Of a DNA stretch of 37,078 bases, positions 7,760 through 31,910 are shown piece by piece; the first letter of the stretch is position 1, and every line of letters starts with the position of its first letter. The notes below the pieces were generated by a model. That model was not told where the DNA came from. It did no database searches and was given only the letters and a program-made list of their open reading frames with translations. The position numbers were made by a program, and so were the translations under genes. This DNA comes from an uncultured Victivallales bacterium (GTDB taxonomy: Bacteria > Verrucomicrobiota > Lentisphaeria > Oligosphaerales > JAFGRS01): NCBI GenBank assembly GCA_903933565.1, contig CAIZKT010000239.1, positions 1-37,078 of the forward strand, written 5' to 3'.

Positions 7760-7788
7760 TTGTAACCACGGGTTTCGACCGATACATT
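7760..7788 (+). promoter_or_regulatory. candidate promoter upstream of pal (TTGTAA, 17 nt spacer, TACATT)
   Basis: Hexamers read by eye, each 4/6 to consensus, about 57 nt upstream of the pal ATG. Confidence 0.25.
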
Positions 7789-7844
7789 TGCGCACGGTTT
7801 TGCGACAGTGTGGGTAAGCGGATGAAGGACGAGGACACACCAGC

Positions 7845-8468: not shown

Positions 8469-8473
8469 CGCCG

Positions 8474-8896: not shown

Positions 8897-8931
8897 TCCC
8901 CAGGGCGACGCCGTCCGCCTCGTCCGCCGCT

Positions 8932-10392: not shown

Positions 10393-10435
10393 GGCGTCCT
10401 CCCAGTTTCCCTGGCGGCATTCGCCGAGCGCGGTT

Positions 10436-11488: not shown

Positions 11489-11567
11489 GCTGAGGTTCTC
11501 CAGATGTCTCCGCCGCAAGGCGTTGAAGCCATCTTGTCCGGCGGGAAGCGCGGGCTCCAGTCGGCGG

Positions 11568-12932: not shown

Positions 12933-13113
12933 GGCAAACTCCTTGGTTGCGCTTCTGCGGCCAGCTCCATACGGCGCCAGGCATACGGCCACCCGTTAAC
13001 ATGGAGTCCAAACCCGCGCTGTCCATGGCGACAGGGGTGCAGGTCAGTTTCGTAGGGGCTTCTGCCTGGCACGGCGGGGCGCCGGTCGGTTCAGGGGTGG
13101 TCGGGGCTGCTGG

Positions 13114-13209
13114 GGGACGGTCGAGGCCGACCGGCGCTCCACGCCTGGCGCCCGTCTGGCGCGAGGCGGATTGGGACGGTCGAGGCCGACCGGCGCTCCA
13201 CGCCTGGCG
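13114..13209. repeat. two perfect 37-bp direct repeats (GGGACGGTCGAGGCCGACCGGCGCTCCACGCCTGGCG) at 13114..13150 and 13173..13209, period 59 bp
   Basis: Read directly. Each copy contains the small hairpin CGGTCG-aggc-CGACCG. They lie in the divergent intergenic region between the gene starts at 12932 (-) and 13299 (+). Confidence 0.9.
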
Positions 13210-13298
13210 ACAGGTGGGCGCGGCGACGACGGCGCGTGTGGACGGTGTTGGCGTCGGCTGTTATGTTGCGGAGTCTCCCGGTCGTCTCCGAGATCAGC

Positions 13299-16923: not shown

Positions 16924-17682
16924 ATGAAACCCATTGCCCTGCAGTTGTACACCCTCCGGGACGCCGCCAAGACGGACTTTGCGGGCGTGCTCAAGCAAGT
17001 GGCCGCCTTGGGCTACCTGGGCGTCGAGCCCGCCGGTTTCCACAATCTCTCCATGGCTGAGTTTCGCAGGGTCGTCGAAGACTGCGGCATGAAGGTGTGT
17101 TCGAGCCACGGTCCCGGGGCTAAGCCGGACAACCTGCAGGAGGTCATCGACGCAGCGGGCATTCTCGGCCTTGATCTGGCGTGCTGCGGCTACGGTCCAG
17201 CGCAGTTCGACACCCGTGAGCACATCCGCCAGACCGCCGAAACCGTCGCCAGCATGGCCGAGAAGCTGCATCAGGCCGGGATCACGCTGTTCCAGCACAA
17301 CCACTACTGGGAGTTCGCCCAGGTCGAGGGCCGTCTGGCCTACGACTGGTACCTCGAGGACTGCGGGCCGTACGTAACCTTCGAGATGGACGCCTACTGG
17401 TCCGCCAACCACGGCGCCAACGACCCGGCGGCAATGACCAAGAAGTTCGCCGACCGCATCCCGCTGCTGCACGTCAAGGACGGGCCGCTGGAGAAGGACA
17501 AGGCGATGATGCCACTGGGCACCGGTAAGATGGACATTCCGGCGGTCGTCAAGGCCTGCAACGAGAAGGTGTTGCGCTGGGTGATCGTCGAACTGGACCG
17601 CTGCGACTGCGACATGTTCGAGGCGGTGTCACTGAGCTACACCTACCTCACGAAAAACGGCCTGGCAAAGGGCCGCAAGTAA
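16924..17682 (+). CDS. sugar phosphate isomerase/epimerase (xylose isomerase-like TIM barrel)
   Basis: AGGAAGGAG lies upstream of the ATG. The opening MKPIALQLYTLRD...LGYLGVEPAGF is typical of AP_endonuc_2/TIM-barrel family members. 252 aa. Confidence 0.85.
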   Translation: MKPIALQLYTLRDAAKTDFAGVLKQVAALGYLGVEPAGFHNLSMAEFRRVVEDCGMKVCSSHGPGAKPDNLQEVIDAAGILGLDLACCGYGPAQFDTREHIRQTAETVASMAEKLHQAGITLFQHNHYWEFAQVEGRLAYDWYLEDCGPYVTFEMDAYWSANHGANDPAAMTKKFADRIPLLHVKDGPLEKDKAMMPLGTGKMDIPAVVKACNEKVLRWVIVELDRCDCDMFEAVSLSYTYLTKNGLAKGRK

Positions 17683-17792
17683 GTCAGCACCCTGCAGTCT
17701 CAAGCAGGCGGCGCTCGCAGCCTGCCGCCATGGTTTCGCGCTTTCCCAGAGCCGTGGATGGCCTGCTGATCTGGCCATGACAGGGAGTGGCG

Positions 17793-18554
17793 ATGAATCT
17801 TCAGGAGATCTGGCCGGGCCAATGTCGAGGCGCGGTCTCGCTCAGCTTCGACGACGGCCTGGAGAACCAGCGCCTGGTGGCGGTGCCGTTGCTAAATGCG
17901 CGCGGGCTGCGCGGCACCTTCTACATCTGCCCAAGGGGCAACGACTACCGCGAGCGTCTGGCGCCCTGGGTTGAGGTTGCGGCGCAAGGCCACGAGATCG
18001 GCAACCACACCCTGTCGCACACCTGCTCGCGCAATTTCCATCCTGGCATTCGGCCGCAGGCGGGGTTGGAGGTGCTGAGCCTCGAGGCCATCGAAGCCGA
18101 CATTGTCACCGCCGAGGAACGCCTGCGGGAGCTGCTCCCGGAGCACGGGCCCCGCAGTTTCTGCTACCCGTGTTATATGACGCACGTGGGCGAGGGGCTG
18201 ACCCGCAGGAGTTACGTACCGGTGGTGGCGAAGCACTTTGTGGCTGGCCGGGCCGGGGGCGAACCCGGCTTCTTCAATCATCCCTACAACATCGACCTGC
18301 ACTGCCTGACGAGTGCCTCGGCGCAGTCCATGGAACCGGAAGAGCTGATCGGGCTAGTCGAACTGGCGGCGCGGCGCGGACACTGGTGCGTGCTGACCTT
18401 CCACGGCATCGGCATCGGCCGTCTGGGCACGGCCGAACACGCCTTTACCGAGATACTTGACCACCTCGTCACCCACCGCGACCGCCTGTGGACAGCGCCC
18501 GTCGCTGACGTCTCTCGGCACTGCACCGAGCTGCGGCAGAAAGCCGCGGAGTGA
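17793..18554 (+). CDS. polysaccharide deacetylase (CE4 / NodB homology domain)
   Basis: The ATG at 17793 lies 5 nt after GGGAG. NodB motifs SLSFDDG and GHEIGNHTLSH are present. Confidence 0.85.
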   Translation: MNLQEIWPGQCRGAVSLSFDDGLENQRLVAVPLLNARGLRGTFYICPRGNDYRERLAPWVEVAAQGHEIGNHTLSHTCSRNFHPGIRPQAGLEVLSLEAIEADIVTAEERLRELLPEHGPRSFCYPCYMTHVGEGLTRRSYVPVVAKHFVAGRAGGEPGFFNHPYNIDLHCLTSASAQSMEPEELIGLVELAARRGHWCVLTFHGIGIGRLGTAEHAFTEILDHLVTHRDRLWTAPVADVSRHCTELRQKAAE

Positions 18555-18656
18555 GCTGAGTGCAGCGGGGCCGACCTACACGGGCTGGGGCTCAAACTCG
18601 CCCAGAGTGCGAAGGTAGCCTATCACGGCCATCGGGTGCGGCCTGCGGCGGCAGTC

Positions 18657-19484
18657 TCACCCCGCGAACGTATCGAAGCCCCAGGGCTCGCGCCGCCGGA
18701 ACTTGGCCTTGTAGCCGGTCTTGACCAGGCCGCCGTCTTCCAGGCAGGCGATGCAGGCGCGGGTGCAGGCGGCGGCGAGGCGGTTGGGTGGGGCGCTGGC
18801 GCACGAGGTATCCGGGAAGGCGCCGTTGACACAGAGGCTGCACTTCTCCTTGGAGAACGTGCCAACGCCGAGCACCTGCTCACCGACCTGGCGCGGGGTC
18901 GGAATCGCGGACAGCGCCTGGGCCGGACAGCCTTTGACGCAGGCCAGGCAGCGCTCACGCCCACACACCTGGCCGCTCGCGAAGGGCGCGTCGGGCTCGA
19001 TGCTGGCTTCGGTAAAGAGCATGCCCAGCGCCTGCCGAGCGCCAAAGCGTGGGGTCAGAAAGATGCCGTTGTAGCCGATTTCGCCCAGTCCGGCCAGTTG
19101 CGCGGCCAGGTTGATATCCGGCGTCACGTTGGGGGCTGGTTTGCCCTCCTTGAAGACGATGCCGTCGGGCCAGCGCTCCGGCGCCAGCGGGCTGCAGGGA
19201 ACCGCCAGGAAGCCGTTGTCCTCGAGGCTGCGGCACAGGTAGTAGCCCGCTGTCGGCGGCAGATAGCGGTCCACCCGCAACCACAACGTGCCCTCCTCGA
19301 TGCCGCGGAAGTAGCTTCGCGGAATGGACTTACCGAACACGACGATGGACTTGGCCTTGGGCAGAATGCTCAGCGGGTTCCACTGAGGCTCGACGTCGCG
19401 GTAACCATCGAGTGCCGCGACGCCCAGGAGATCCAGCCCGAGGGACGTGGCCCACTGCCCCAGCTTATCTCTGGAGATATCCAT
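18657..19484 (-). CDS. QueG/RdhA-superfamily-like Fe-S protein, paralog 3 of 3 (275 aa)
   Basis: The ATG at 19484 starts MDISRDKLGQW and overlaps the upstream stop as TGATG, with GGAGGTGGTG as SD. Motifs: AAQLAGLGEIGYNGIFLTPRFGARQ, CGRERCLACVKGCP, CSLC, ACTRACIAC. C-terminus REPWGF. Confidence 0.7.
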   Translation of the reverse strand: MDISRDKLGQWATSLGLDLLGVAALDGYRDVEPQWNPLSILPKAKSIVVFGKSIPRSYFRGIEEGTLWLRVDRYLPPTAGYYLCRSLEDNGFLAVPCSPLAPERWPDGIVFKEGKPAPNVTPDINLAAQLAGLGEIGYNGIFLTPRFGARQALGMLFTEASIEPDAPFASGQVCGRERCLACVKGCPAQALSAIPTPRQVGEQVLGVGTFSKEKCSLCVNGAFPDTSCASAPPNRLAAACTRACIACLEDGGLVKTGYKAKFRRREPWGFDTFAG

Positions 19485-20446
19485 CACACCACCTCCCCTT
19501 TGACGCCGCCGCTGAGTTTGCCGCGGGTCTCCAGGTGCGAATTGCAGGCCTGCACGCAGCCGACGGCCCCGCAGACGGACCCAGGACGCCCGCCCTGCCC
19601 GTGCTCGGCGCTGCCGTTGGCGATCAGCTTCACGTACTCGATCCGCTCGGACAGGGCGAACCCCAGGCGGTAGGCTTCGTACCAGGTGTAGTTCGTCTTC
19701 TCGACCTCCATGTCCATGCCGGGCAGGTCTTTGCTGACAAAGGGTGAGGCTTTTGGATTGAGGCCCCAGTGAGTGACTTTGCACTTGCCGCAATCGACGG
19801 CGCCCCAGGCGAACTCGCGCCCTTCGACGGCGATGGCCTCTCGTTCCCCGCCCAGGGCCAGGCCCGGGCAGTGGCGCACGCAGGCCATGCAGCTGTCGCA
19901 GAGCGGCCCCTGGAACAGCGGGTCAGGCTCCAATTCGGCATCCGTAAGAATAATATCGAAGCGCTGGCGCGGGCCGAACTGCGGCGTCAAGAAGACCTTC
20001 GACCAGCCGAACTCACCCAGTCCCGCCAAGGCCGCCGCGACGCGCATGTGCAACATGATGCAGGGGGGCCGTTTACCCTTGGCCAAGGGCTCCCGCGCCG
20101 GGGGCGCCTCGTCGAGGAGCGTGTGGCCTCCCGGGGACGACACCGCCTCGTAGCCGTGGTCCTCCAGGAGGGCGGCAATGGCGCCGGTGGCGCTACCCAG
20201 GGAACTGTAGATGCCGCTGCCGTAACCGTAGATCCAGTAGGTGGACCAGTCCGTGCCTTCCTGAATGCCCTTGTAGCTGCCTTTCAGGATTCGGCTGGCG
20301 TAGACGATGATCGACTTTGCCTCCGGAAACAGCGAGGTAGGATGGGTTTCCGGCGGTCCGTCCTTGAAGCGTTCGAGGCTGGCGATACCGCACAGGTCGG
20401 CGCCGCCTTGGACCGCGCAGTCTTTGACCATCTTGGCGGTCAGCAT
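19484..20446 (-). CDS. QueG/RdhA-superfamily-like Fe-S protein, paralog 2 of 3 (320 aa)
   Basis: The ATG at 20446 starts MLTAKMVKD and lies 1 nt after the upstream stop (TGAgATG), with GGGGGTGGTG as SD. Motifs: GADLCGIASLERF, LFPEAKSIIVYA, AAALAGLGEFGWSKVFLTPQFGPRQ, CDSCMACVRHCP, CGKC, CGAVGCVQAC. Confidence 0.7.
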   Translation of the reverse strand: MLTAKMVKDCAVQGGADLCGIASLERFKDGPPETHPTSLFPEAKSIIVYASRILKGSYKGIQEGTDWSTYWIYGYGSGIYSSLGSATGAIAALLEDHGYEAVSSPGGHTLLDEAPPAREPLAKGKRPPCIMLHMRVAAALAGLGEFGWSKVFLTPQFGPRQRFDIILTDAELEPDPLFQGPLCDSCMACVRHCPGLALGGEREAIAVEGREFAWGAVDCGKCKVTHWGLNPKASPFVSKDLPGMDMEVEKTNYTWYEAYRLGFALSERIEYVKLIANGSAEHGQGGRPGSVCGAVGCVQACNSHLETRGKLSGGVKGEVV

Positions 20447-20447
20447 C

Positions 20448-21329
20448 TCACCACCCCCTCTTCTCATCCGGCCGGTAGCCCCAGGGCTCACGGCTGCGGA
20501 AGGGGATCCGGTATCCGGTATCGTGCGTCGCCTCGAAGTGTGCTATGCAGGCGCGTCCGCAGGCTGCGGAAAGGCGATTCGGCAAGCCGCCACGGGCAAA
20601 CTTGCTCTTGGCGTCGCCCTTGACCTGATTGTTCTCGATGTCGAAATGGAGTTCGTCGGCGCCGGCGAAGTACTTGGAGTCGCCGGAGACGCCATTGGGG
20701 CAAGCCCGGCAGGCGTTGGCGTTGATCAGGCCCAGTGACTGGGTTCGGCCGTTGCAGGTAATCGGGGTCGACTCGTGGGCCGAGATCGCCTGCAAGGGGC
20801 ACTGTTTGACGCACTCCAGGCAGTGGTCGCAGAGGGCTTCCCCGGACGGCGGGCTGGCCTCGATCTCCAGGTCGGTCACCAGCAGCCCCAGCATCTGACG
20901 GATGCCATACTTCGCGGTCATGAACATGCCATGGTAGCCGATCTCTCCCAAGCCCGCCGCCGCGGCGGCATACTCGACCGACAGTCGGAGACTATTGGGC
21001 GCCCCGAGCCCGGGGCGTACCGGCTGCCGCGGCATTCTGGGCGCGTCCAGAGGGGCATAGGGGACGCACTCGTGGCCCAGGCTCTCGAGGTAGCGCAGGA
21101 GACCGTCGAAGGTGGTGATCCAGCGGCCGGGGGTCTGCCAGAGCGAGCCCTCTTCCATCGCGCGGAACTGCCCTCGACGGATCTGCGAGCCCACCACGAC
21201 CACCGACTTGGCGTCAGGGAAGAGGCTGAGGGGGTGCTCGTTGGGCGGCAGCCCGACAAAACTGCTCAGCGGTGGCACGCCCACGAGGTCGTACCCCGCG
21301 TGCTTCCTGAACTCAGCGAACGACAGCAT
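20448..21329 (-). CDS. QueG/RdhA-superfamily-like Fe-S protein, paralog 1 of 3 (293 aa)
   Basis: The ATG at 21329 starts MLSFAEFRKH and is preceded by AAGGAGAGG. Motifs: YDLVGVPPL, LFPDAKSVVVVG, AAAAAGLGEIGYHGMFMTAKYGIRQ, CDHCLECVKQCP, CRAC, ACGRAC. C-terminus REPWGY. Confidence 0.7.
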   Translation of the reverse strand: MLSFAEFRKHAGYDLVGVPPLSSFVGLPPNEHPLSLFPDAKSVVVVGSQIRRGQFRAMEEGSLWQTPGRWITTFDGLLRYLESLGHECVPYAPLDAPRMPRQPVRPGLGAPNSLRLSVEYAAAAAGLGEIGYHGMFMTAKYGIRQMLGLLVTDLEIEASPPSGEALCDHCLECVKQCPLQAISAHESTPITCNGRTQSLGLINANACRACPNGVSGDSKYFAGADELHFDIENNQVKGDAKSKFARGGLPNRLSAACGRACIAHFEATHDTGYRIPFRSREPWGYRPDEKRGW

Positions 21330-21399
21330 GTCCGCAGCCTCTCCTTTCCGTCGGCAAGGATCCACGCCAGGTTCCGTCCAGCGCGGGCGCCGCGCCCGT

Positions 21400-24132
21400 T
21401 CACGGGACCAACTGGAGCAGCCCTGCCGTATCCACCTGCCAGACCTCGGCGCCAGTCAGGGTCCAGACCATCCAGGAATCGTCGGCGACCCGGCGGATGT
21501 TCAGGTTGAACGGCAACTCCTTCAGGGTGGCCGGATCGATCCCGGCGGCATCCATGGGTATGCGCCATTCGCCGACCCAGCGGTCGGGGGCGACCGTGGC
21601 CGCGAACTGCACCGCTGCGCCGAGCTGTTGCGCCTGCTCCGCGGTCGCCCCGGCCGCGCTCACACTCTCGAACTTGCCGTTGGGAAAGCCGCGCAGATTG
21701 AAGATGGGATTGCCATAGCATAGGCTCTTGGCGTGGGAGGGACTGCGGAAGGCCAGTTCGATGGCATCAACCTGGCCCCAGGCGCCCTCGGCCTTCAGCG
21801 GTTGGGTCGGGTCCAGCGGATTGACGACCAGCAGGTACAAGGCGGTGCCATCCCAGGCGGCCCAGGCCTGGGAGACCTGCTTGGAGGGCGTGCCGCACGC
21901 CGCACTGGCACAGCGCAAGGCGGTGCTGGGGTCTTGCACCCAGTCCTCGGCTTTGCCGTCGATGCTGAGGCTGCCCGGCGCCACCCGGCGAGCGGGGGGT
22001 TTGGGCACCGCGCCGCGCGTGATCCGTGTGGGCGCCTGGTCCGGGAGCGGTGCGTGTTGCACTGGCCAGGTGACCCGAAACTCATCCTGGCGCAGGCCGA
22101 TCTTGTCCACCGGAAGCGCCTGGAAACCGAGCGCCCATACCGGCGACTCCGGCCTGAGGCGGAAATCCTGTTTGGCCGCATCCACAAAGAGCGGATCGCC
22201 CTCGGTGAAGTTTCCCTCCAGGATCAGCAGCGGGCGCGCCTCGGCACTGACTTCGTCCCAGCGTCCGCCGACGCTGAGGTTGTGGGCGATACGGTTCCGC
22301 TTGGGCTTCTCCGGTTCATCATCGAGCATCCCCACCAGTTGCGGGTAACGCTCCTTCCAGGGCGATTCCTTGTACGGCATTTGCTTCAGGTTTTCCGGTT
22401 GGATCGTGGTGGCGCCGTAGTTGTATTTGCCCATGCCTCGCGCGTCGACGTGCAAGGCGGGTTTGCAGTCGACGAAGATGTTGTTTTCGACCACGTTCTC
22501 GCGTCCGCCGCCGATGAAGGCGGCGCGAGTGACCTTGTAGAAGATGTTGCCGATCATGCTGTGGCCGCTGAGGATGTCGTCGAGGTAGATACCGACGCAG
22601 CCCTGGCCGCGGAAGCCGTTGATGTGGTGCAGGTAGTTGTAGCGGAAGACGGTGCCTTGGAACGACCAGTTACGGCCGCCGTAGATGGCGCCGGCGTCGT
22701 TGGACTCGTAGCAGACGCTGTGGATCTCGTTATACTCGACTACGTGGTCGTTGCCGCTGAAGCCGATGGCTTCGTGCGGGGCGTCGTGGATCAGGTTATG
22801 CGCCACCCGGTTGCCGACGCCGTTGCACTGCACGCCGGGCTGATACATGCGGCACCAGCGGCTGTAGTGGTAGATGTGATTGTTCTCAGCGTAGAGCCCG
22901 GCCGGTGTGAGCGTCCTACGGTCGCCGCCGTCGAGGGTGACGCCGCCCAGGCCGGTGTCGGTGATGTCGCAGCCGAGCACGCCGTTCTGCGTGCCGCCGC
23001 CGATCGTGACCGCCCAGCCGCCGGTGTTGCGGAGCACGCACCCGGCGACGCGATTGCCCGTACCGCCGCGGATCGAGACCGCGGTGCCGCGACAGGCCTC
23101 CAGGATGAAGCCGCGGACGGTGATCTGCGCGGCATCCTTCATCACGATCAGCGTATCAAGCACTGAAACCGTCGGACGCTGGGCGGGCGAGGCTGGCGCT
23201 GAGCCGTCTCCCGCCGGTGGCCAGAAGTAGAGCAGTCCCGCCGCACGGTCCAGGTACCACTCGCCCGGGCTATCGAGCTCGCACAGCAGGTTGAAGCCGT
23301 AGAACCAGCGATCTTTACGGTAGCCGAAAGTGTGATACGGCGGTTTGACCGCCAGGACGTGCTTGTCCGGCTCGATGCTGGCGATCGGGTGGCGCTGGTC
23401 GGACCAGTCGTGGTACCAGTAGCCGTGGACCCAGCCGTCGGGCTCCTGCAGCCAGCGCGCCGGGCGGTCGCCCTCGTAGACGATCCGCCCTTCCTTGCAC
23501 ATGTCCTGCCCGCGGTCGTTCTTGGTCACCGGCCAGGCCACGTCGGCAATGCGGATAAAGCCGTCGTTGGGCCAGCGCGCCAGGGTCATGGGCCGGTCGC
23601 CACAGAACAGCTCCAGCCCCGGCCCACCGCGGCTCGTGTTCCAGTCCTGCTTGCCGTAGTCCATCACCCCCAGCGCCTTGAGGTCGGCCTGGAGCACATG
23701 CGCTCGCGCCGCCTCGTCCAGCCGAGCGAGGACGGCGGGGTCGGTGACCGGGACCAGGTTGGTGACCGCGCGCCCGCCGCTCAGTCGCACCTCGGCCCCA
23801 GGCGCGGCGCGGTAGGTGATCGGGCTGTCGGCAGTACCCGCGTCGGCGGCCGTGAGTTCAAAGGGCTGGACCAGCTGGTAGGTGCCCGCTGCCACCTCTA
23901 CCGTGACCCCGCCGGAGGGTAGTTTGCCGGCCGCCTTGAGTCGGCGAATCTCGTCGCGGGCGCGCTCCAGGGTCCGAAACGGCCCGGCGGTCGGGTCGGG
24001 CGGGGCGCGCTGGGCGCGGGCGCCGGAGCAGGCGTCGTCCCCGTCCGTCGCCACAAAGAGCGTGGCAGGGACGGCGGCGACCGCGGACGTAAGGATACAC
24101 GCGGCGGAGCACACCCAGGCAGAGGTTGTCAT
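21400..24132 (-). CDS. secreted right-handed parallel beta-helix protein (pectate-lyase-fold glycan-active enzyme) with C-terminal CBM9-like domain, 910 aa
   Basis: The ATG at 24132 gives the signal peptide MTTSAWVCSAACILTSAVAAVPA, with GGGGAG upstream. The opening LFVATDGDDACSG...PFRTLERARDEI...GGVTVEVAAGTY is typical of beta-helix enzymes. Repeated GxxNxV/I coils are present (GTGNRVAGCVL, GTQNGVLGCDI, VGNRVAHNLI). The C-terminal DGKAEDW...AWDGTALYLLV block is CBM9-like. Confidence 0.8.
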   Translation of the reverse strand: MTTSAWVCSAACILTSAVAAVPATLFVATDGDDACSGARAQRAPPDPTAGPFRTLERARDEIRRLKAAGKLPSGGVTVEVAAGTYQLVQPFELTAADAGTADSPITYRAAPGAEVRLSGGRAVTNLVPVTDPAVLARLDEAARAHVLQADLKALGVMDYGKQDWNTSRGGPGLELFCGDRPMTLARWPNDGFIRIADVAWPVTKNDRGQDMCKEGRIVYEGDRPARWLQEPDGWVHGYWYHDWSDQRHPIASIEPDKHVLAVKPPYHTFGYRKDRWFYGFNLLCELDSPGEWYLDRAAGLLYFWPPAGDGSAPASPAQRPTVSVLDTLIVMKDAAQITVRGFILEACRGTAVSIRGGTGNRVAGCVLRNTGGWAVTIGGGTQNGVLGCDITDTGLGGVTLDGGDRRTLTPAGLYAENNHIYHYSRWCRMYQPGVQCNGVGNRVAHNLIHDAPHEAIGFSGNDHVVEYNEIHSVCYESNDAGAIYGGRNWSFQGTVFRYNYLHHINGFRGQGCVGIYLDDILSGHSMIGNIFYKVTRAAFIGGGRENVVENNIFVDCKPALHVDARGMGKYNYGATTIQPENLKQMPYKESPWKERYPQLVGMLDDEPEKPKRNRIAHNLSVGGRWDEVSAEARPLLILEGNFTEGDPLFVDAAKQDFRLRPESPVWALGFQALPVDKIGLRQDEFRVTWPVQHAPLPDQAPTRITRGAVPKPPARRVAPGSLSIDGKAEDWVQDPSTALRCASAACGTPSKQVSQAWAAWDGTALYLLVVNPLDPTQPLKAEGAWGQVDAIELAFRSPSHAKSLCYGNPIFNLRGFPNGKFESVSAAGATAEQAQQLGAAVQFAATVAPDRWVGEWRIPMDAAGIDPATLKELPFNLNIRRVADDSWMVWTLTGAEVWQVDTAGLLQLVP

Positions 24133-24152
24133 GCGGACTACTCCCCAATCGG

Positions 24153-26093
24153 CTACTTCATCTGCGGCAGGATGATGCCGCGCAGGATGACCTTCTGGCA
24201 GAGGAGGAACACCAACAGCACCGGCACCGAGGTGATGGCGTAGGCGGCCATGACGACATAGGGCTGAGTGGCGAAGGTGCTCGAGAACTGATAGGTCCAG
24301 ACCGACACCGTCCACATACGCTGGTCCTGACAGACGATCAGGGCCCACTCCCAGCCGGCGTAGGCGCTGATGAAGGCGTTGAGCATGCTTACGGCGAGGA
24401 TGGGCTTGACCAGCGGTAGCGAGACCAGGTAGAACACCTGTATTTCGGAGGCGCCGTCGATGGTGGCCGCCTCAAACAGCTCCTGGGGCAGCGAGTCGAA
24501 GAAGCCCTTGAGCAGAAAGATGGTCATGCCGTTGGCGGCGCCCGGCAGCACGAGGGCCGCAAAGGTGTTGAGCAGATTCAGGTCACGCAACAGCAGAAAG
24601 CCCGGGATGGCGGAGACGGCGGCTGGGAAGGCCATGGTGGTGAGGCAAAAGACGATGATTTTCTCGGTCGGGCGCAGCCGGAACCGGCTCAGGGCGTAGG
24701 CGCAGAGCGGGTTGACGGTCAGGGTGATAGTGATGGCGAGCGCCACGAGGATAAGGGTGTTGCGCACCGCCGGGCCGCGGAGGAACAGGTGATCGAATAC
24801 CGCCCCGTAATTGCCCAGGGCGTCCTGCAGGGTAATGGACCACTCGCGGTCCGCAAAGGTCGTGAGAAGCGCCTGGCGGTAGGGAATGTGCAGTTGCTCG
24901 ATGCCGGCCAACTGCAGTCCGTAGGCGGCGTTGACGCCAGCGCGGTCGACGTGTTTGCGCAGGGCGAACTTCTGGAAGGCCAACTCGGGCAGGGTGTCAC
25001 GGATCTGCCAGTCCTGGACCGGGACCGCGGTGCGCAGAAAATCGAACCAGACGCCGCTGAACTTCTCGTCGGGCACCGTCGAAGTGAGCGGCAGATCATC
25101 CCAGGTCTGGACCGGGCGCTCAAGCACGCGCCCGGCATAAGCGGGAGTGCGAAAGCGGTCGACCAGGAAGGCGCGGAACGCCGCCGTGCGCTCTGCCGTC
25201 ACCGGAAACGCGACGTGGCGTAGCGCGAAGCTGTTCAGGAGGTACGCCTGCCACAATGTGCGCAGCGGCGCCGGGGCGTCTGCCGGGACCGGAAAGGGCA
25301 GGGCGCTGACCTCGCCTAGCGCCTTGCCTTCGTCACCGGCGGCGCGCACGTAGCTCTCCCAGGTGAAACGCAGGGCCGCCGGCCGCAGCAAGTTGGCTGG
25401 GGCGCCGACGAAGCAGGACGAGTAACGGTTCTGCCGGTAGGCCTGCCGGAAGGCGAGCAGATCCTGGTAGCGCGCGTCTTCCAGCGGGGTGAACGAAGGC
25501 AGGTCGAAGGCTTCGCCGCTCCACTCGCTGGCCGCGATCTTCATGAAGTCGTCGACGGAGAGTTCCCAGGCGGCATTGAAGCGATCCAGGGTCCGGTAGC
25601 GGTCCTTGAGGAAGAGGCCGATGTACTGGATGTTGTAGGAGACCGTGGTTTCGCGGAGGTCCCAGCCGTCGATAAACTCCGTGTAGTCGCGGGCCGCGGC
25701 CCGGAGGTCGGCCCGGCGCGCGGGGTCCGCCAGCTCGCGGAGTTGCTTCCGGGCCCAGGCATCGCTCTGCGCGCGCTCATCGCCGATGGCGGCCCAAATC
25801 TGCCAGTCCTCGGGACAGTCGGGGAAGAAGCTCTTCATCTGCTGGACCGAGTTGCGGGGCTGCGGCGGGAAGACCAGCGCCAGCAGCCGCATCAGGCGGT
25901 CCTCGCGCGACATTAAGAAGCGCGGCAGCAGGCTGCGGCGCTCGTAGTCGAAGGGATTGCTCACCGAGCCGGTCAGCATCACCAGGAAGGGGCAGACCAT
26001 GGCCACTGCGCCCAGGGTGAGCAGCACGTAAATGCCCACGATGAGGAAGCGTCCCCTGGCTGACTTGTAGTCTGTCGGGCCAATGATGGGCAT
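24153..26093 (-). CDS. ABC carbohydrate-transporter permease (MalG-like) with a periplasmic insertion of about 390 aa after TM1, 646 aa
   Basis: N-terminus MPIIGPTDYKSARGRFLIVGIYVLLTLGAVAMVCPFLVML is a positive cytoplasmic stretch followed by TM1. A long soluble segment follows, then the permease core. The EAA loop reads FDSLPQELFEAATIDGASEIQVFYLVSLPLVKP. The start lies 4 nt after the upstream stop. Confidence 0.85.
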   Translation of the reverse strand: MPIIGPTDYKSARGRFLIVGIYVLLTLGAVAMVCPFLVMLTGSVSNPFDYERRSLLPRFLMSREDRLMRLLALVFPPQPRNSVQQMKSFFPDCPEDWQIWAAIGDERAQSDAWARKQLRELADPARRADLRAAARDYTEFIDGWDLRETTVSYNIQYIGLFLKDRYRTLDRFNAAWELSVDDFMKIAASEWSGEAFDLPSFTPLEDARYQDLLAFRQAYRQNRYSSCFVGAPANLLRPAALRFTWESYVRAAGDEGKALGEVSALPFPVPADAPAPLRTLWQAYLLNSFALRHVAFPVTAERTAAFRAFLVDRFRTPAYAGRVLERPVQTWDDLPLTSTVPDEKFSGVWFDFLRTAVPVQDWQIRDTLPELAFQKFALRKHVDRAGVNAAYGLQLAGIEQLHIPYRQALLTTFADREWSITLQDALGNYGAVFDHLFLRGPAVRNTLILVALAITITLTVNPLCAYALSRFRLRPTEKIIVFCLTTMAFPAAVSAIPGFLLLRDLNLLNTFAALVLPGAANGMTIFLLKGFFDSLPQELFEAATIDGASEIQVFYLVSLPLVKPILAVSMLNAFISAYAGWEWALIVCQDQRMWTVSVWTYQFSSTFATQPYVVMAAYAITSVPVLLVFLLCQKVILRGIILPQMK

Positions 26094-26097
26094 CCGG

Positions 26098-28320
26098 CTA
26101 TACTCCCTTCGCCTGCCGGAAGTCGACCCGGCGCAGGATCTGCAACTGCAGGTAGGTGAAGCCCATCAGCATGCTGCCGAGGATCCAGGCGTACGCCGAG
26201 GCCAAACTGAAACGCAGGTTGACGTAGGCCTCCTGCCAGATGGCCAAGCTCATGACCATCGTTTCCTTGCCTGGGCCGCCGAAGGTGAGCAGGAAGATGT
26301 GGCCCATGGTCTGGAACGTGCCGATGAAGGCCCCCACAAAGTTGATCAGCACCAGCGGCGCGATGGTCGGTAGGGTGATGTGTCTGACCTTGCCGAAGAC
26401 GCCCAGGCCGTCGACGCTGGCGGCTTCGTAGAGGTCCTCGGGCACCGACTTCAGCGCGGCCAGGTAGATGAGACTGCTGATGCCAGCGCCGGCCCAGATG
26501 CCGGGGATGATGACGCAGGCCATCACCGTCGACGGATTGCCCAGCCAGTCGATGGGCTGAAACCCGAAGCGACCGAGCAGCCACAGCAGGAGCCGGTTGA
26601 TGGTGCCGGAGGCGGTGCCGACGTACATGTCCTTCCACATCAGGGTGACCACCAGTCCACTGGTCATCTGCGGCAGGAAGAAGAGCGTGCGGAAGAGGAC
26701 CTTCAGCCGTGGCACCTCGGCCAGCAGCAGGGCGAGGAAGATCGGCGTGAAGAAGGCCAGAAATAGGTTCCAGAGTACGAAGCGGAAGGTCGTGAAGATG
26801 TAATGGAAGAAGTTCGGGTCGGTGCCGATGGCGATGAAGTTGGTGAGCCCGACCAGGGCCGTCTTGCCCGCAATGCGGTAGTCCTGGAAGGCCATGACCA
26901 GACCGCGGCCCAGCGGGTAGTAGCCCCAGAGCGTGATCGAGACCAGGGCGGGGGCCATCATGATCCAGGGTAGCCAGCCCTTGTAGACGCCGGCCAGGCT
27001 CGGCTTGCGCCGGAGCTGGCTGCGGATGATCAATACCACCATCACCGCCATGAACGCGGCCATCGCGCCGACGATCAGGCGCGCCTTGGGCCGCAGCGCC
27101 TCGATCTGCTCGGGGGGGCGTTCGTACATGATCCCGGTGTTGGCATCCCGCTCCAGTTGCTGGAGTGCGGCCTTGTAGTCAAAATCCTTGCCGCTCGGCC
27201 GCAGCACCAGGTCGATCGCCTCCCGCTGGTAGTACTCGCGAAACTGCAGCCAGCGCCCCGTGAAGGGCTCCACAATCTCGAGGAATTTGCCGGCTTCGAT
27301 ATCGGCCCACAACTGCCGATTCTCGGGCGGCATCTGGCGGATGTAGTCGTCCAGTTCGAGTCGGCGCAGGTCCCGCGGATTCATGAACTTGGCCTGACCG
27401 GCGGCGACCTTCTGACGGATGACCTCTTCCTTGCCTTCGGGACTGGTGATCAGCGTCATGAGTTGCCAGACCCGGTCACGGTAGGCCTTGCGCGCCTCCG
27501 GCGTGGCGCCGCCGCGGTCGAGCACGTCCTTGCCGATCATGAAGAAGCAATTCGAGTGCTGCAGCACGGAGCGCTGGTCCGTGGTCATGGCGGGGAAGGG
27601 CATCATGCCGACGTCTTCCGGCTCGACCCCGGAGCTGGCAAACTCGGTCATGTCACCGGACCAGAGCGGGTACATGGCCAGGTCGCGCCCCATCCGTCGG
27701 ATGACCCGGTTGATCTCTTCGACGTTACACAACCGCAGGGAGCCTTCGACGACGTCCTCGGGCTTGAACGCGAGGGTCCGGCCCTGGTACGCGACCGCGC
27801 CGCGGGTGACGTCGGCAGGGGTCAGAGTGACCGGTTCGCCGGTCTCGGGATCGCGAATCCAGGGCTCCCAGCGCAACCGGTGATAGAAGCCGACCGCGGC
27901 CGTGCATTCCGGGCTGGCCACGTTGCAGCGCCAGGTGGGCGTGACGTTCTGCAGGTCTTCGTGCGTGTCCGGCGCGATGAACTCGGTATCCTGTTCGTTG
28001 AACTGGTAGACCTTCCCGGTTGTGGGGCTCTTGCGGTACTGCACGTTGATGCTGGAGCCGGTGGTGGCCACCCAGGGGGCAAACGACCAACTCGCCGAGA
28101 TGAACTCGACCTGGAAAACCTTGGTCTCAGGGTTGTAGAGCTTGCGGCACCAGCGCAGGTACTCGTCCCAGGTCTGCGGCGGCTGCATGGGGTCGAGTCC
28201 GGCCTTGCGCAGCAGCCGTTTGCTGTAGAGGATGCCGACGTAGGTGCCCTCGCTGAAGGGCAGGGAGTAGGGCTTGCCATCCACGGTGCAGACCAGGCGG
28301 AAGATCGGCTTGATCTTCAT
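26098..28320 (-). CDS. solute-binding-protein-like domain fused to a MalF-like ABC permease (740 aa as listed; probably the 3' part of a longer gene)
   Basis: The N-terminal roughly 400 aa look like an SBP family-1 domain (TVDGKPYSLPF, ILYSKRLLRKAGLDP). A TM segment follows, LIVGAMAAFMAVMVVLIIRSQLRRK. The permease core has the EAA loop LKSVPEDLYEAASVDGLGVFGKVRHITLPTIAP. Confidence 0.85.
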   Translation of the reverse strand: MKIKPIFRLVCTVDGKPYSLPFSEGTYVGILYSKRLLRKAGLDPMQPPQTWDEYLRWCRKLYNPETKVFQVEFISASWSFAPWVATTGSSINVQYRKSPTTGKVYQFNEQDTEFIAPDTHEDLQNVTPTWRCNVASPECTAAVGFYHRLRWEPWIRDPETGEPVTLTPADVTRGAVAYQGRTLAFKPEDVVEGSLRLCNVEEINRVIRRMGRDLAMYPLWSGDMTEFASSGVEPEDVGMMPFPAMTTDQRSVLQHSNCFFMIGKDVLDRGGATPEARKAYRDRVWQLMTLITSPEGKEEVIRQKVAAGQAKFMNPRDLRRLELDDYIRQMPPENRQLWADIEAGKFLEIVEPFTGRWLQFREYYQREAIDLVLRPSGKDFDYKAALQQLERDANTGIMYERPPEQIEALRPKARLIVGAMAAFMAVMVVLIIRSQLRRKPSLAGVYKGWLPWIMMAPALVSITLWGYYPLGRGLVMAFQDYRIAGKTALVGLTNFIAIGTDPNFFHYIFTTFRFVLWNLFLAFFTPIFLALLLAEVPRLKVLFRTLFFLPQMTSGLVVTLMWKDMYVGTASGTINRLLLWLLGRFGFQPIDWLGNPSTVMACVIIPGIWAGAGISSLIYLAALKSVPEDLYEAASVDGLGVFGKVRHITLPTIAPLVLINFVGAFIGTFQTMGHIFLLTFGGPGKETMVMSLAIWQEAYVNLRFSLASAYAWILGSMLMGFTYLQLQILRRVDFRQAKGV

Positions 28321-28790
28321 CCAGCCGTCCCACTTAGCCTGTCGGCGTCAATCTGGCCATTCTTGTCCGGGGTGCCCGCCGCGGTGAGCTTGGGCCGACC
28401 GTCGGCCAGCACCCCATCCTCGCCGATCCACTCCGTCAGCGGCACGGCTAAGTTCTGCGAGACCGCCTGCCGGATGTCCATCTCGAAGATGTCGGGGCCG
28501 CGGTTGCCGGCCATGGACATGCCCAGGCTCGCCGTCCAGGCGCCGCCCGGCATGCGCAGGCTCTCCCACTGCTTGAGATGGACATTGGGGTTCGCCGCGA
28601 AGAACTCACGGATCGTCTTGGGCTGACGGCCCTGCGCGTTGTAGCGCGAGGTGATCGAGATGTTGTACTCGACCGCCTGAGCCAGGGTGGCAGGCGCGGC
28701 CAGCACCAACAGGAAGGGGAGCAGGATCAGGGTCGGAAGCCGCCGCAGGTTCGCCGCCGCCGATCTCAGATGAGCACTGTTCCTGAGCAT
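28317..28790 (-). CDS. signal peptide plus N-terminal part of an SBP-like domain (157 aa); probably the 5' part of the 26098..28320 gene, separated by a frame change
   Basis: The N-terminus MLRNSAHLRSAAANLRRLPTLILLPFLLVLAAPATLAQA has an AQA-type cleavage site. The SBP-like sequence continues to LAVPLTEWIGEDG. The stop overlaps the next ATG as ATGA. See finding. Confidence 0.6.
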   Translation of the reverse strand: MLRNSAHLRSAAANLRRLPTLILLPFLLVLAAPATLAQAVEYNISITSRYNAQGRQPKTIREFFAANPNVHLKQWESLRMPGGAWTASLGMSMAGNRGPDIFEMDIRQAVSQNLAVPLTEWIGEDGVLADGRPKLTAAGTPDKNGQIDADRLSGTAG

Positions 28791-28890
28791 GTCATCCTTG
28801 CACGAGTTACCCCGCCGCGGCGGCTGTTGCGAGAAGCAGTCCGTACCGGCAGACAGTGTAGACCCTGGAGCTCAAGAATCAACACCGGAC

Positions 28891-30024
28891 TCAGTAGCGG
28901 CCGTAGGTGCGCGCCGTCTCGATCATCGCCTCGAGGTTGGCATCGGGGGTGTCGCGGCCGCATTGGTCGCCGGTGGAGAGGATGAAGCCGCCACCGGCGC
29001 CGGCATCGTCAATGGCCTGTCGAGAGGCGCGGACGACATCCTGCGGCGTCCCGCGCAGCATCACGTCCGTGGTGTGCAGGTTCCCCATCAGGCTGAGCTT
29101 GGCGCCGAACTCCCGCTTGAGGCGGCCCAGGTCGCAGTCGCCCATAGGAGGGACTTCCAGGGGGTTGATGTTGTCCAGGTCCGTTTCTTCGGCGCTGATC
29201 TTGACCAGATCGTACTCGGGGCCGCAGCAGTGGATCTGGCTGGGCATGCCGGCCTTGCGGCAGACCGCGGTGATGTCCTTCAGGGTCGCCAAGGCGAGTT
29301 CACGGAAGATGGGCGGCGGGTTGCTGAGCATGAATCCCGAGACGCCCACCAGGAGGAAGTCCATCTCCAGCTTGACCAGTGCCTCGGTGCGGCGCACGAT
29401 GGTCTGGCGCGCCTTTTCGCAGCGTTCGACCACCGCTTGGTGGTTATCGTAGTATTCGTACATCGACTCCGGAGCCAGCCCCAGGCCCGGCAACCAGACG
29501 CCGCCCCCGACGATGCCGGCTTCACCCATCAACTCGCGGGCTTTGGTGAGAGCGCTGGTGCCTGGGAAACTCGTGCGCGGCACGACGTCTTCCCACTGGT
29601 CTGGGTCAGCCCCCGTCAAACCGACCTTGGCTAAGGCGACACCCCCGGTGGGCGGATTGTCCGGGTAGTACACGTTGCAGGTCTTGGACCACTGCAACCG
29701 ACCGTTGATCTCGGCGTGCGTGCGGGTGATGATGAACTCTGGCGTGCGGGCCACGATGGCCTGCTGCCAGGCAGGACGGGCGGCGGCGTCTGCCGCCTCG
29801 TAGTCGAGAGTCACCGGTACGGAAGGCAACCAGCCGTCGAAGCCGAAGTGCTTGGCGCAGTGGATGTAGGCCTGCCACAAGGGCGGGTCCTGCCACAGAT
29901 AGATGTCCCAGAACGGCTTGCCCGTCAGCCGGCAGGGAATCATGTTCGAGGTGTCAGGGGCGACCGGCACACAGTCTGGCTGACCGTTCTTCATGGCGAT
30001 CAGCAGGCGTTCACGAGAGGTCAT
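28891..30024 (-). CDS. uroporphyrinogen decarboxylase (URO-D) family protein, MtaA/CmuA-like subgroup, 377 aa
   Basis: The ATG at 30024 is preceded by GGGAG. The opening MTSRERLLIAMKNGQPDCVPVAP and the C-terminal FILSTGDQCGRDTPDANLEAMIETA are typical of URO-D-fold proteins found outside haem operons. No other haem biosynthesis genes are nearby. Confidence 0.8.
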   Translation of the reverse strand: MTSRERLLIAMKNGQPDCVPVAPDTSNMIPCRLTGKPFWDIYLWQDPPLWQAYIHCAKHFGFDGWLPSVPVTLDYEAADAAARPAWQQAIVARTPEFIITRTHAEINGRLQWSKTCNVYYPDNPPTGGVALAKVGLTGADPDQWEDVVPRTSFPGTSALTKARELMGEAGIVGGGVWLPGLGLAPESMYEYYDNHQAVVERCEKARQTIVRRTEALVKLEMDFLLVGVSGFMLSNPPPIFRELALATLKDITAVCRKAGMPSQIHCCGPEYDLVKISAEETDLDNINPLEVPPMGDCDLGRLKREFGAKLSLMGNLHTTDVMLRGTPQDVVRASRQAIDDAGAGGGFILSTGDQCGRDTPDANLEAMIETARTYGRY

Positions 30025-30372
30025 CAGCGGCTCCCTGGTGCAGGTCTAACTTCGGGCACGGCAACGCCACGAGGGCCACGGTCATCCCAGGCGGCGACTT
30101 CCCGGGCGCTACGGATTCTCAGCCCGGCGCCTGGTCGAGCCCGTAGCCGTGCCGTATTCATGAGCCCCCAATCTACTGGTTTTAACCCCCTGTTGCAACG
30201 CCTCTATGCCAGTCAACCAATGTCACATAAACGTTCCACTTTCTGAGTTGCGGCACGTCTATGTACCAACGCCAGGAGCTTCACTCCCTCCTGGTGAAGG
30301 TCTGATACGATGGGTTCTAAGACATTTATGCGGAATAGGTAACATGTCTATTGCGGATTGAGTATAGGCGCT

Positions 30373-30388
30373 TGGCACGGCGCCTGCT
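30373..30388 (+). promoter_or_regulatory. sigma-54 (-24/-12) promoter candidate for glnA: TGGCACGGCGCCTGCT
   Basis: Matches TGGCACG-N4-TTGCW except for T to C at the first base of the -12 element. GG and GC have the correct spacing. It lies 83 nt upstream of the glnA ATG. glnA is a classic sigma-54/NtrC target in many bacteria. Confidence 0.5.
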
Positions 30389-30470
30389 ATACATCCTGAC
30401 AGTCGGGCCACTGCGGGGTGAACCGCAGTCCGTCAAACCGTCAGGAATCGAGCCAAGGAGACACACGGCG

Positions 30471-31910
30471 ATGTTCAAAAACGCGAAAGAGATCCTGGAG
30501 TTTGTGAAGAAGGAGGGAGTGCAGGCCGTGGATCTGCGCTTCATGGACTTCCCCGGTATCTGGCAGCACTTCACCATTCCCACCCATGAACTGGACGAGT
30601 CGGTGTTTGAAGCCGGTCTGGGCTTCGACGGCAGCTCCATCCGCGGCTGGAAGGCGATCAACGAATCCGACATGCTGGTGAAGCCGGTGGCCGAGACAGC
30701 CTTCGTCGATCCATTCTTCGTGCATAAGACCCTGGTCATGGTGTGCAACATCTGCGATCCCATCACCGGCGAGGACTACACTCGCGACCCGCGCAACATC
30801 GCCCGCAAGGCCGAGGCTTACCTGGCCGGCACCGGTATCGGCGACACGGCGTACTTCGGGCCGGAAGCGGAGTTTTTCATCTTTGACGACGTGCGCTTCG
30901 ATCAGAACCAGCACAGCGGCTACTACTTCATCGACTCCTCGGAAGGCGACTGGAACAGCGGTCGCAAGGAGAACCTCGACGCCAGTGGCCTGTCGCACAA
31001 TGACGGCTGCAAGATTCGCTACAAGGAAGGCTACTTCCCGGTACCGCCGGCGGACAGCCAGCAGGATATGCGCAGCGAGATGATGCTGACGCTGGAGCAG
31101 ATCGGCGTGCCCATCGAACGTCAGCACCACGAGGTGGCCACGGCGGGGCAGGCCGAGATTGACATCCGCTATGCCGCGCTGGTCGCCATGGGCGACATGA
31201 TGCTCAAGTACAAGTACGTCATCAAGAACGTCGCCAAGAAGTACGGCAAGACGGTTACCTTTATGCCCAAGCCGCTGTTCAAGGACAACGGCAGTGGCAT
31301 GCATGTGCACATGTCCATCTGGAAGAAGGGCCAGCCACTCTTTGCTGGGGATGGCTATGCCGGCCTGAGCGAGATGGCCCTGTACGCCATTGGCGGTCTG
31401 CTCAAGCATGCGCCCGCGTTGCTGGCGATCTGTAACCCGACGACCAACAGCTACAAGCGGCTGGTCCCTGGCTTCGAGGCGCCCGTCAACCTGGCCTACT
31501 CCAGCCGCAACCGGTCCGCCTCGATCCGTATCCCCATGTACTCGAACAACCCCAAGACCAAGCGCCTGGAATTCCGCTGCCCGGACCCGAGCTGCAATCC
31601 CTACCTGGCCATGTCGGCCATGCTCATGGCGGCCATCGACGGCATCCAGAACAAGATCCATCCCGGAGCCCCGCTGGATCGCGATATCTACGATATGAGC
31701 CCCGAGGAACTCTCCACCGTGCCGCATACGCCCGGCAGCCTGCGCGAGGCCCTCGAAGCCCTGCGTGCCGACCACCAGTTCCTGCTCAAGGGCGATGTCT
31801 TCACGCAGGACGTGATCGACACGTGGATCAGCTACAAGATGGATAATGACGTCAACGCCATGGCTCTGCGACCGCACCCGTGGGAGTTCAAGCTCTACTA
31901 CGACGTCTGA
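30471..31910 (+). CDS. glnA: glutamine synthetase type I
   Basis: The ATG at 30471 has AAGGAG 10 nt upstream. N-terminus [37 protein letters not shown]-site block [32 protein letters not shown] and [14 protein letters not shown] are present. A Tyr sits in the adenylylation-loop context [11 protein letters not shown]. 479 aa. Confidence 0.95.

Follow-up and report, generated by a model that had tools for sequence, protein, structure and literature searches.

A string of minus-strand genes on contig CAIZKT010000239.1 of an uncultured Victivallales bacterium (the whole stretch of 37,078 nucleotides (nt) is called the window) encodes a URO-D/MtaA-fold protein (G1), an ATP-binding cassette (ABC) importer, a right-handed beta-helix protein (G5) and three iron-sulfur (Fe-S) proteins (G6, G7 and G8). 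The first importer gene (G2+G3) joins a solute-binding protein (SBP) to a permease and the second (G4) encodes another permease. We lean, with slightly more confidence than doubt, towards reading this string as an accessory cassette of about 10 kb, catabolic and specific to its lineage, beside a URO-D-like gene that belongs to the backbone of a Lentisphaerota (Victivallales-like) population. URO-D is the backbone neighbour, and the importer, a variable enzyme and the Fe-S triplet form the accessory cassette. The cassette is assembled from independently circulating parts, each of the four components being found in other contexts outside the lineage. An earlier note on this DNA had offered, as one speculative reading, that the string serves the corrinoid-linked removal of a glycan decoration, which is pure speculation. 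Taken as an operon, it is a glycan-utilisation string of an ordinary, lineage-specific kind, and the corrinoid account is not supported. The Fe-S family, the MtaA-fold family and the fused importer are each conserved and frequent among bacteria that degrade glycans anaerobically, such as Lentisphaerota, Armatimonadota, Clostridia and Planctomycetota, and the most interesting part is an uncharacterised multi-subunit RdhA/QueG-like family.

The accessory block is present or absent as a unit

The loci around homologues of each component were searched with all window proteins (L-numbers denote contigs or loci, and P-numbers homologous proteins, from other genomes or metagenomes). Only one of 47 importer loci repeated the combination, namely L109, a 30-kb metagenome contig that carries a GFO_IDH_MocA gene in place of the beta-helix gene. 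Its order is URO-D (78% identity), SBP-permease (88%), permease (85%), GFO_IDH_MocA, G6, G7 and G8 (76, 88 and 81%), Uma2, AP_endonuc_2 and M28. L001, a Victivallales metagenome-assembled genome (MAG), is the closest relative in the species-representative collection (one genome per GTDB species) by the identities of its backbone genes, and it reads URO-D (84%), Uma2, a deacetylase remnant, AP_endonuc_2 (89%) and M28 (84%). AP_endonuc_2 and the M28 peptidase are syntenic among the window, L001 and L109. Gene order is shared by L001 and L109 to either side of URO-D, and the Uma2 proteins of the two agree at 81% identity; on this synteny, the six genes from SBP-permease to G8, between URO-D and the downstream backbone, are present or absent as a unit, a clean indel. 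An insertion of G2–G8 into the window was considered and dropped, since the block stands at the same site in the more distant L109; it may have been lost from L001 or gained in a common ancestor. A search for mobile-element boundaries of the block returned only the repeats of G6/G8 paralogy, with no flanking direct or inverted repeats. The natural presence or absence of the block (window and L109 versus L001), together with the swap of its middle enzyme, provides an experimental handle.

Outside this lineage the components were found apart. No G2–G8 homologue was present within up to 10 kb on each side of the G1 orthologues (50–84% identical; 12 loci, several on short contigs). The 92 loci of the Fe-S module had no importer or beta-helix homologue, and L070 alone had a distant URO-D paralogue; the four loci of the beta-helix gene had no other string genes. 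In the importer loci (45 from genomes, and L109 and L110 besides) both permease genes always stood together, a beta-helix paralogue was seen only in L111 (51% identity), distant URO-D paralogues in three loci (L110, L115 and L151) and one weak Fe-S fragment in L126. These results indicate that the gene association, which the earlier note had taken for a functional unit, is largely not conserved. L001 keeps URO-D without the six-gene block, and the orthologues never adjoin the triplet outside this lineage.

Layout of the string

All listed minus-strand open reading frames (ORFs) were present at their given coordinates, without internal stops, in an ORF check. The eight ORFs previously listed are real, but the genes are seven, the 157- and 740-amino acid (aa) ORFs being one gene. 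The family assignments (URO-D/MtaA fold, ABC importer, beta-helix and Fe-S triplet) were confirmed by Pfam/NCBIfam, structure and profile matches. The GC content at third codon positions (GC3) of the string ORFs is 0.85–0.90, against about 0.65 for the GC of the window, and a purine-rich sequence like a ribosome-binding site lies upstream of the ORFs. The junction lengths given earlier were reproduced: 100 nt from G1 to the SBP-permease gene (28791–28890), 4 nt between G2+G3 and G4 (26094–26097), 20 nt between G4 and G5 (24133–24152), 70 nt between G5 and G6 (21330–21399, the second-largest gap of the string), 1 nt between G6 and G7 (20447) and a 1-nt overlap of G7 and G8 at 19484. Consensus scans for promoters and terminators, including the 100-nt and 70-nt gaps, gave nothing above chance. 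The glnA gene starts at 30471 (479 aa) as called in L156, which puts the length of the divergent intergenic region at about 446 nt. The start of the operon had been placed at a divergent promoter region shared with glnA, but this arrangement is not conserved, as L109 and L001 carry other genes upstream of URO-D.

Features of the gene string and its downstream neighbours in the window
Feature	Coordinates	Strand	Remarks
G1, 377-aa cytoplasmic URO-D/MtaA-fold protein	28891..30024	-	PF01208; backbone gene outside the accessory block
G2+G3, 897-aa fusion of signal peptide, SBP_bac_1 and MalF/UgpA-like permease	26098..28790	-	one gene; split here into 157 + 740 aa
Frameshift, one G missing	28340/28341	-	only gap versus L156; GACGAGGCT -> GACAGGCT on the coding strand
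G4, 646-aa MalG/UgpE-like permease	24153..26093	-	BPD_transp_1 at residues 477-640; UgpE and MalG NCBIfam matches sub-threshold
G5, 910-aa right-handed beta-helix protein, probably secreted or anchored	21400..24132	-	PF13229 Beta_helix, 42.8 bits (cut-off 25.9)
G6, 293-aa Fe-S protein, first and most divergent subunit	20448..21329	-	TIGR00276 39.6 and TIGR02486 38.7 bits, sub-threshold
G7, 320-aa Fe-S protein, middle and most conserved subunit	19484..20446	-	family profile and AF2 fold
G8, 275-aa Fe-S protein, third subunit	18657..19484	-	TIGR00276 and TIGR02486 sub-threshold; 43% identical to G6
AP_endonuc_2 (xylose-isomerase-like TIM barrel)	16924-17682	+	convergent downstream backbone; Pfam
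Polysaccharide deacetylase	17787-18554	+	convergent downstream backbone; Pfam

The window also encodes a sulfatase, CBM9, SASA esterase and GDSL proteins besides the polysaccharide deacetylase and AP_endonuc_2 (Pfam). The nearest relatives of the Fe-S genes (84–88% identity) and of the backbone genes are from Lentisphaerota/Victivallales MAGs. A second accessory indel was observed at window 8932–12992 (minus strand), where a sulfatase, a CBM9 protein and a 474-aa protein without Pfam match lie between AMP-binding and OmpA genes; this block is absent from the syntenic L001 region. Two features of L109 are not in the window, namely a 23S_rRNA_IVP-family gene between the importer permease genes (12889–13257) and a MazE/PIN toxin-antitoxin pair directly upstream of URO-D (7449–8109). 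At window 32328–37078 (plus strand) a very large gene runs off the end; it is 1,572 aa as called in L156, and an internal 623-aa piece has no Pfam match.

A missing G splits the importer gene

The earlier note had listed the ATGA at 28317–28320 among the junctions of consecutive ORFs. L156 and the window are 99.72% identical over 19,404 nt with a single gap, which is the missing G (blastn). P0241 is the intact form of the protein, 100% identical over the aligned part (BLASTP), and across the junction it reads ...GQIDADEAKWDGWMKIKPIF... without break. Consistently, the SBP_bac_1 profile is divided between the two ORFs, with positions 9–90 in the 157-aa ORF and 104–163 in the 740-aa ORF. Among the matches listed, about 120 homologues are nearly all fusions of 860–930 aa, and the intact gene with the same seven-gene order occurs in four other assemblies from the same population. 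The fused homologues and the single-G gap together argue that the ATGA overlap is a frameshift and not translational coupling. On this comparison of sequences it is a frameshift product, from either an assembly error or a strain-level pseudogene.

The importer is a fused CUT1-type system

Two BPD_transp_1 permeases and an SBP_bac_1 binding domain were found (Pfam, NCBIfam), which is the composition of a CUT1 importer. In G2+G3, BPD_transp_1 lies at the C-terminus (Pfam), and the hydrophobicity of the intact protein shows a signal-like segment, then an ectodomain of about 530 aa and then transmembrane (TM) helices. G4 has a single N-terminal TM helix, followed by an extracytoplasmic domain of about 400 aa and a MalG-like core (TM scan); its N-terminal 418 aa had no Pfam match, and its sequence matches in the PDB were AlgM2, MalG and SugB. 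The SBP-permease gene and G4 stood together in 39 of the 39 importer loci with a contig reaching past the former gene, and the pair is kept in 45 genomes, among varied glycan genes. Its neighbours elsewhere (alpha-L-fucosidase, GH123, GH20, FGE-sulfatase and DUF6785) are heterogeneous.

No ABC ATPase is encoded in the window, as the earlier note had observed, and ABC_tran was detected in only 2 of 70 same-strand neighbours of related importer loci. Because ABC_tran is so rare there, a missing ATPase is normal for this importer family. Sugar ABC importers of this kind, with the binding protein fused to a permease, are conserved in anaerobic glycan degraders.

G6, G7 and G8 belong to the QueG/RdhA superfamily

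G6, G7 and G8 are 31–43% identical to each other, and the paralogy of G6 and G8 is also seen as DNA repeats 1,800 nt apart. Against TIGR00276 (QueG) they score 39.6, 24.3 and 36.8 bits (cut-off 200), with only model positions of about 135–199 covered, and against TIGR02486 (RdhA) 38.7, 35.3 and 33.2 bits (cut-off 160.35). The sequence of G6 matched a reductive dehalogenase (RDH) complex (E 2e-8) and QueG (E 9e-6) in the PDB over the AGLGxxG-to-CxxCxxCxxxCP core, and the G7 family profile matched a PceA-type RDH (E 7.5e-15), NpRdhA (1.6e-7) and QueG (1.2e-5) over the same core. The AlphaFold2 (AF2) model of G7 (predicted local distance difference test, pLDDT, 83.6) found RDH/PceA, QueG and NpRdhA in this order by Foldseek, followed by MMACHC/CblC. 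This predicted RdhA/QueG/CblC fold agrees with the earlier assignment of the Fe-S proteins to a corrinoid-using superfamily.

Across 22 orthologues of each subunit, the invariant cysteines are 167, 170, 173, 177, 207, 210, 257 and 261 in G6, 183, 186, 189, 193, 222, 292, 297 and 301 in G7, and 174, 179, 182, 186, 215, 218, 240 and 244 in G8. Exactly eight invariant cysteines per subunit are enough for two [4Fe-4S] clusters each. No hydrophobic or TM segment was found in G6–G8, their N-termini (MLSFAEF.., MLTAKMV.. and MDISRDK..) are without a twin-arginine motif, and no gene for an RdhB-like small membrane protein is adjacent to them. Since they lack a TM segment and a twin-arginine translocation (TAT) signal and are shorter than solved QueG, G6–G8 are neither QueG nor respiratory RdhA. 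QueG is a class III enzyme with cobalamin and two [4Fe-4S] clusters, like RdhA, and its active site has a D-Y-H motif and a catalytic Asp (PMC4646009).

The order G6-G7-G8 is conserved in Lentisphaerota and Clostridia, beside IclR, AraC, T2SS or GFO_IDH_MocA/AP_endonuc_2 genes. In distant relatives from many phyla, at about 40% identity, the module is a pair, in which a short G8-like gene precedes a G7-like one. When a library of representatives was searched with the G7 family profile, 5,101 proteins were found at E <= 1e-3 and 302 at E <= 1e-30, and more than 579 loci of the Fe-S module are present across the species-representative genomes. Of the 148 best-matching cluster representatives for the G7 family, 41 are 725–836 aa long, and the four long representatives examined (P0366, P0371, P0385 and P0418) each consist of three tandem QueG/RdhA-like modules. 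In these fused proteins modules 1 and 3 generally retain the Cys motif and module 2 has lost it, P0418 having the exact motif in module 1 only. Such three-module fusions are a Rosetta-stone hint that the separate paralogues may form one complex. A precomputed Pfam domain was found in none of 120 G7 homologues among the matches listed, and a literature search on the triplet family gave nothing. G6–G8 form a family of their own, for which neither Pfam nor NCBIfam has a model.

The same-strand neighbours of the Fe-S modules (n = 114) are heterogeneous (IclR 10, GFO_IDH_MocA 7, sulfatase 5, AraC 5), with GH4 also frequent. These Pfam counts were made to look for a conserved partner; URO-D, SBP and Beta_helix are absent from the 25 neighbour families listed. 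A bolder reading, which we hold to be rather unlikely, is that G6–G8 represent a widespread uncharacterised branch of the RdhA/QueG superfamily and work as a soluble hetero-oligomer. It would contain as many as six [4Fe-4S] clusters, perhaps with a corrinoid, and would cleave C-O (or C-S/C-X) bonds reductively in substrates derived from carbohydrates, in bacteria that degrade glycans anaerobically. If true, this cleavage would be a new reaction class for the superfamily, beside dehalogenation and epoxide reduction; and if the family turned out to be a cobalamin-dependent reductase of sugars, class III B12 chemistry would reach into carbohydrate catabolism.

Several further observations were made around the Fe-S genes. 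In Clostridia (L019–L021, L044 and L045) an AraC regulator precedes the triplet, which has two GFO_IDH_MocA genes and AP_endonuc_2 on its flanks. L109 has GFO_IDH_MocA upstream and AP_endonuc_2 downstream of the triplet; of these two, only AP_endonuc_2 is found in the window. The combination of oxidoreductase, TIM barrel and Fe-S proteins may be a recurring theme. DUF6785/DUF6784 proteins of 630–790 aa recur by URO-D orthologues (L009–L011, upstream), by Fe-S modules (L013 13938–15977 and L022 10407–12293) and by the importer (two loci); a literature search on DUF6785 found nothing relevant. A Ceramidase_alk-like protein is encoded at window 146–1591 and another at L022 5826–7133. The L022 gene lies directly upstream of an Armatimonadota Fe-S pair, after which come a pectate-lyase-type beta-helix protein and DUF6785.

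The URO-D/MtaA-fold protein

G1 matches PF01208 with 56.4 bits (gathering threshold 23.9), the match being limited to residues 191–374 in the C-terminal half. It scores 52 bits against TIGR01463 (MtaA/CmuA), under the curated cut-off of 235.4, and the MtaA and MtbA equivalog models gave 31.8 (cut-off 400) and 24.9 (cut-off 600). A direct sequence search of the PDB gave no match, and a profile search gave marginal MtaA and HemE matches only. The AF2 model (pLDDT 84) has a URO-D-type TIM-barrel fold, and its top Foldseek match is MtaA of M. mazei (4ay7, E 6e-9, TM-score 0.61/0.68), with UROD structures at about 0.60. H265, C266, C267 and C355 are invariant across 18 homologues, and in the HMMER alignment C355 lies two residues off the Cys of the MtaA 'GCG', which we take to be a zinc ligand in MtaA. 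The H265-C266-C267...C355 pattern resembles the zinc site of MtaA and is a candidate site. Of the methyltransferase features looked for, a fold as near to MtaA as to UROD was found, but not the family score.

The G1 orthologues occur in MAGs of Lentisphaerota, Armatimonadota and Planctomycetota, within other gene contexts. Their neighbours (GH2, GH65, DUF6785/DUF6784, a PFL-like glycyl-radical enzyme and LacI regulators) form a carbohydrate context and are not haem genes. A B12-binding domain was absent from the 25 listed families (74 were matched) of the immediate neighbours in 11 G1-orthologue loci, and a literature search on URO-D-like proteins in glycan loci gave nothing relevant. G1 is probably, as far as its sequence and context tell, a separate, metal-dependent enzyme of carbohydrate context, and its homologues form an orphan MtaA-fold family with a candidate zinc site. 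In L003 (an Armatimonadia MAG) a G1 orthologue (69%) was observed directly downstream of a PFL-like glycyl-radical enzyme (PF02901 + Gly_radical; 7654–9915). Homologues of G1 and of the SBP-permease fusion with 65–70% identity were also seen in MAGs labelled Armatimonadota, Lentisphaerota, Planctomycetota and Kiritimatiellia. Such identity across phyla is unusually high and suggests horizontal transfer or mis-binned contigs.

The beta-helix protein and its exchangeable slot

G5 has one N-terminal hydrophobic segment (residues 10–28). Its sequence is strongly similar to PDB 9rx2, a 'parallel beta-helix repeat protein' (E 3e-28), for which a literature search found no paper. The GH141_M model gave 17.8 bits (cut-off 27) and NosD was also under its cut-off; similarity to the N-terminus of the GH141 protein BT_1002 is limited to residues 27–122 (E 4e-7). 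A CBM9-like domain at the C-terminus is no more than possible: CBM9_1 was sub-threshold (16 bits) though its whole profile was spanned. In L109 the slot of G5 is occupied by a 446-aa GFO_IDH_MocA oxidoreductase, and G5 homologues elsewhere stand alone.

Proposed role and alternative explanations

In the accessory-cassette reading, the beta-helix enzyme would trim an extracellular glycan and the importer would take up the product, drawing on a shared ATPase whose gene lies elsewhere. The Fe-S proteins, as a soluble heterotrimer, would then perform a low-potential reductive step on a compound of carbohydrate origin that was taken up, perhaps using a corrinoid as RdhA and QueG do, and the adjacency of URO-D would reflect an insertion site and not a shared pathway. 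The order of outside enzyme, importer and cytoplasmic enzymes, already sketched in the earlier note, is reasonable in the glycan-degrader gene context of the window. Several points weigh against this reading. The importer-triplet link was observed in two related lineages only and in none of the other 45 importer or 92 Fe-S loci, and it could be inherited synteny without function. Co-transcription is suggested by the spacing, which fits an operon, but the 70-nt and 100-nt gaps could contain promoters. The frameshifted importer gene may mean that the cassette is inactive in this strain, or that the assembly is wrong. The D-Y-H motif and Asp of QueG could not be mapped on G6–G8, where only 'EG..W' is common to the paralogues in that region, and cobalamin binding is no more than plausible on the predicted fold.

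The seven genes could be neighbours by history, with an autonomous triplet whose role is unrelated to the importer or to glycans. We hold this to be possible but rather doubtful. Most of the triplet or pair loci examined have neighbours unrelated to the importer, IclR being the commonest (10 of 114 on the same strand), the importer elsewhere accompanies fucosidases, GH123, GH20 and FGE-sulfatase and not Fe-S genes, and the gap before G6 is wide for this string. However, importer, slot enzyme and triplet were gained or lost jointly (L001 versus L109), and their order is kept in two lineages that are 76–88% identical in protein sequence. The triplet here is without the IclR gene that it has elsewhere, suggesting reliance on upstream transcription, and its frequent neighbours include carbohydrate enzymes (GFO_IDH_MocA, sulfatase and GH4). 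A decaying locus, in which the frameshift is real and the cassette is undergoing pseudogenisation, as in L001 where it was lost, seems improbable to us. The intact gene is present in the four other assemblies of the population, the deletion is the sole gap in 19.4 kb at 99.7% identity, the remaining genes are intact with high GC3, and a consensus or assembly error is at least equally likely; what speaks for decay is the gene split by a one-base deletion and a block that is dispensable in the close relative L001.

We consider it quite unlikely that the string is a dedicated pathway in which a URO-D/MtaA-type methyltransferase and QueG/RdhA-type cobalamin enzymes jointly strip an O-methyl or other reducible group from imported oligosaccharides through corrinoid chemistry. 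No corrinoid-binding (B12-binding) protein or activase was found among the scanned window proteins, no riboswitch of any kind, cobalamin riboswitches included, in the window or five related loci (Rfam), and no sub-threshold cobalamin element in 18300–30600. None of the 12 loci with URO-D orthologues has a G2–G8 homologue within the up to 10 kb covered on each side (several contigs being short), URO-D is kept in L001 despite the clean absence of the block, 91 of the 92 Fe-S loci are without a URO-D-like gene, and G1 reaches 52 bits of the 235 required by the MtaA/CmuA model. A shared pathway would account for the MtaA-like H-x-C...C of G1 that is invariant in 18 homologues, its MtaA-like fold, and the predicted class III cobalamin enzyme fold of G6–G8, including the likeness to MMACHC/CblC. 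It would also agree with the same order of both gene sets in the window population and L109, and with the distant URO-D paralogues near one Fe-S pair (L070) and in three importer loci (L110, L115 and L151).

Comparison with known systems

The importer resembles the CUT1 systems MalFGK2, UgpAE, AlgM1M2 and SugAB in its MalF/UgpA- and MalG/UgpE-type permeases and its SBP_bac_1 domain, and many CUT1 systems likewise have the ATPase encoded elsewhere. In contrast, the binding protein here is covalently fused to the N-terminus of the first permease, and G4 differs from their second permeases by an ectodomain of about 400 aa that matches no known family. Fusions of binding protein and permease are known for the GlnPQ- and OpuA-type importers; we know of none described for CUT1 sugar systems.

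G1 can be compared with the methylcobamide:thiol methyltransferases MtaA, MtbA and CmuA and with the bacterial MtaA-like 'mlp' clusters (PMC10418091). They are alike in the URO-D-type TIM barrel and the candidate H-x-C...C site. M. mazei MtaA is the best fold match in the PDB, yet its identity to G1 is only 16%. G1 also differs by its low family score, by the lack of a cognate corrinoid gene nearby and by its GH2, GH65, DUF6785 and glycyl-radical neighbours.

G6–G8 share with PceA, NpRdhA and QueG the AGLGxxG...CxxCxxCxxxCP core, the eight cysteines and the predicted fold, the fold match of G7 to MMACHC/CblC being weaker than to these three. In contrast, they lie far under both curated cut-offs, and the TAT signal and RdhB-like anchor of RdhA are not seen with them. 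The solved QueG chains have 370–437 residues versus 275–320 aa, and from length and match extent G6–G8 probably lack the C-terminal helical-repeat domain of QueG. Furthermore, a long insertion interrupts their second cluster motif, two or three paralogues always occur together unless fused into one three-module protein, and their genes are located in carbohydrate-gene neighbourhoods.

G5 resembles the GH141 and other beta-helix carbohydrate-active enzymes (BT_1002, PDB 5mqp; PDB 9rx2) in its Beta_helix repeats, in the N-terminal segment shared with BT_1002 and in its strong similarity to 9rx2. It differs from GH141 in that the insertion-domain model is below cut-off. As a whole, the string is similar to the polysaccharide-utilisation-type operons of PVC bacteria and Armatimonadota, in that genes for a secreted enzyme, for uptake and for cytoplasmic enzymes share one strand and have sulfatase, esterase and CBM genes around them. 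It differs from them in having no internal regulator and in that the Fe-S set replaces the usual cytoplasmic glycoside hydrolases.

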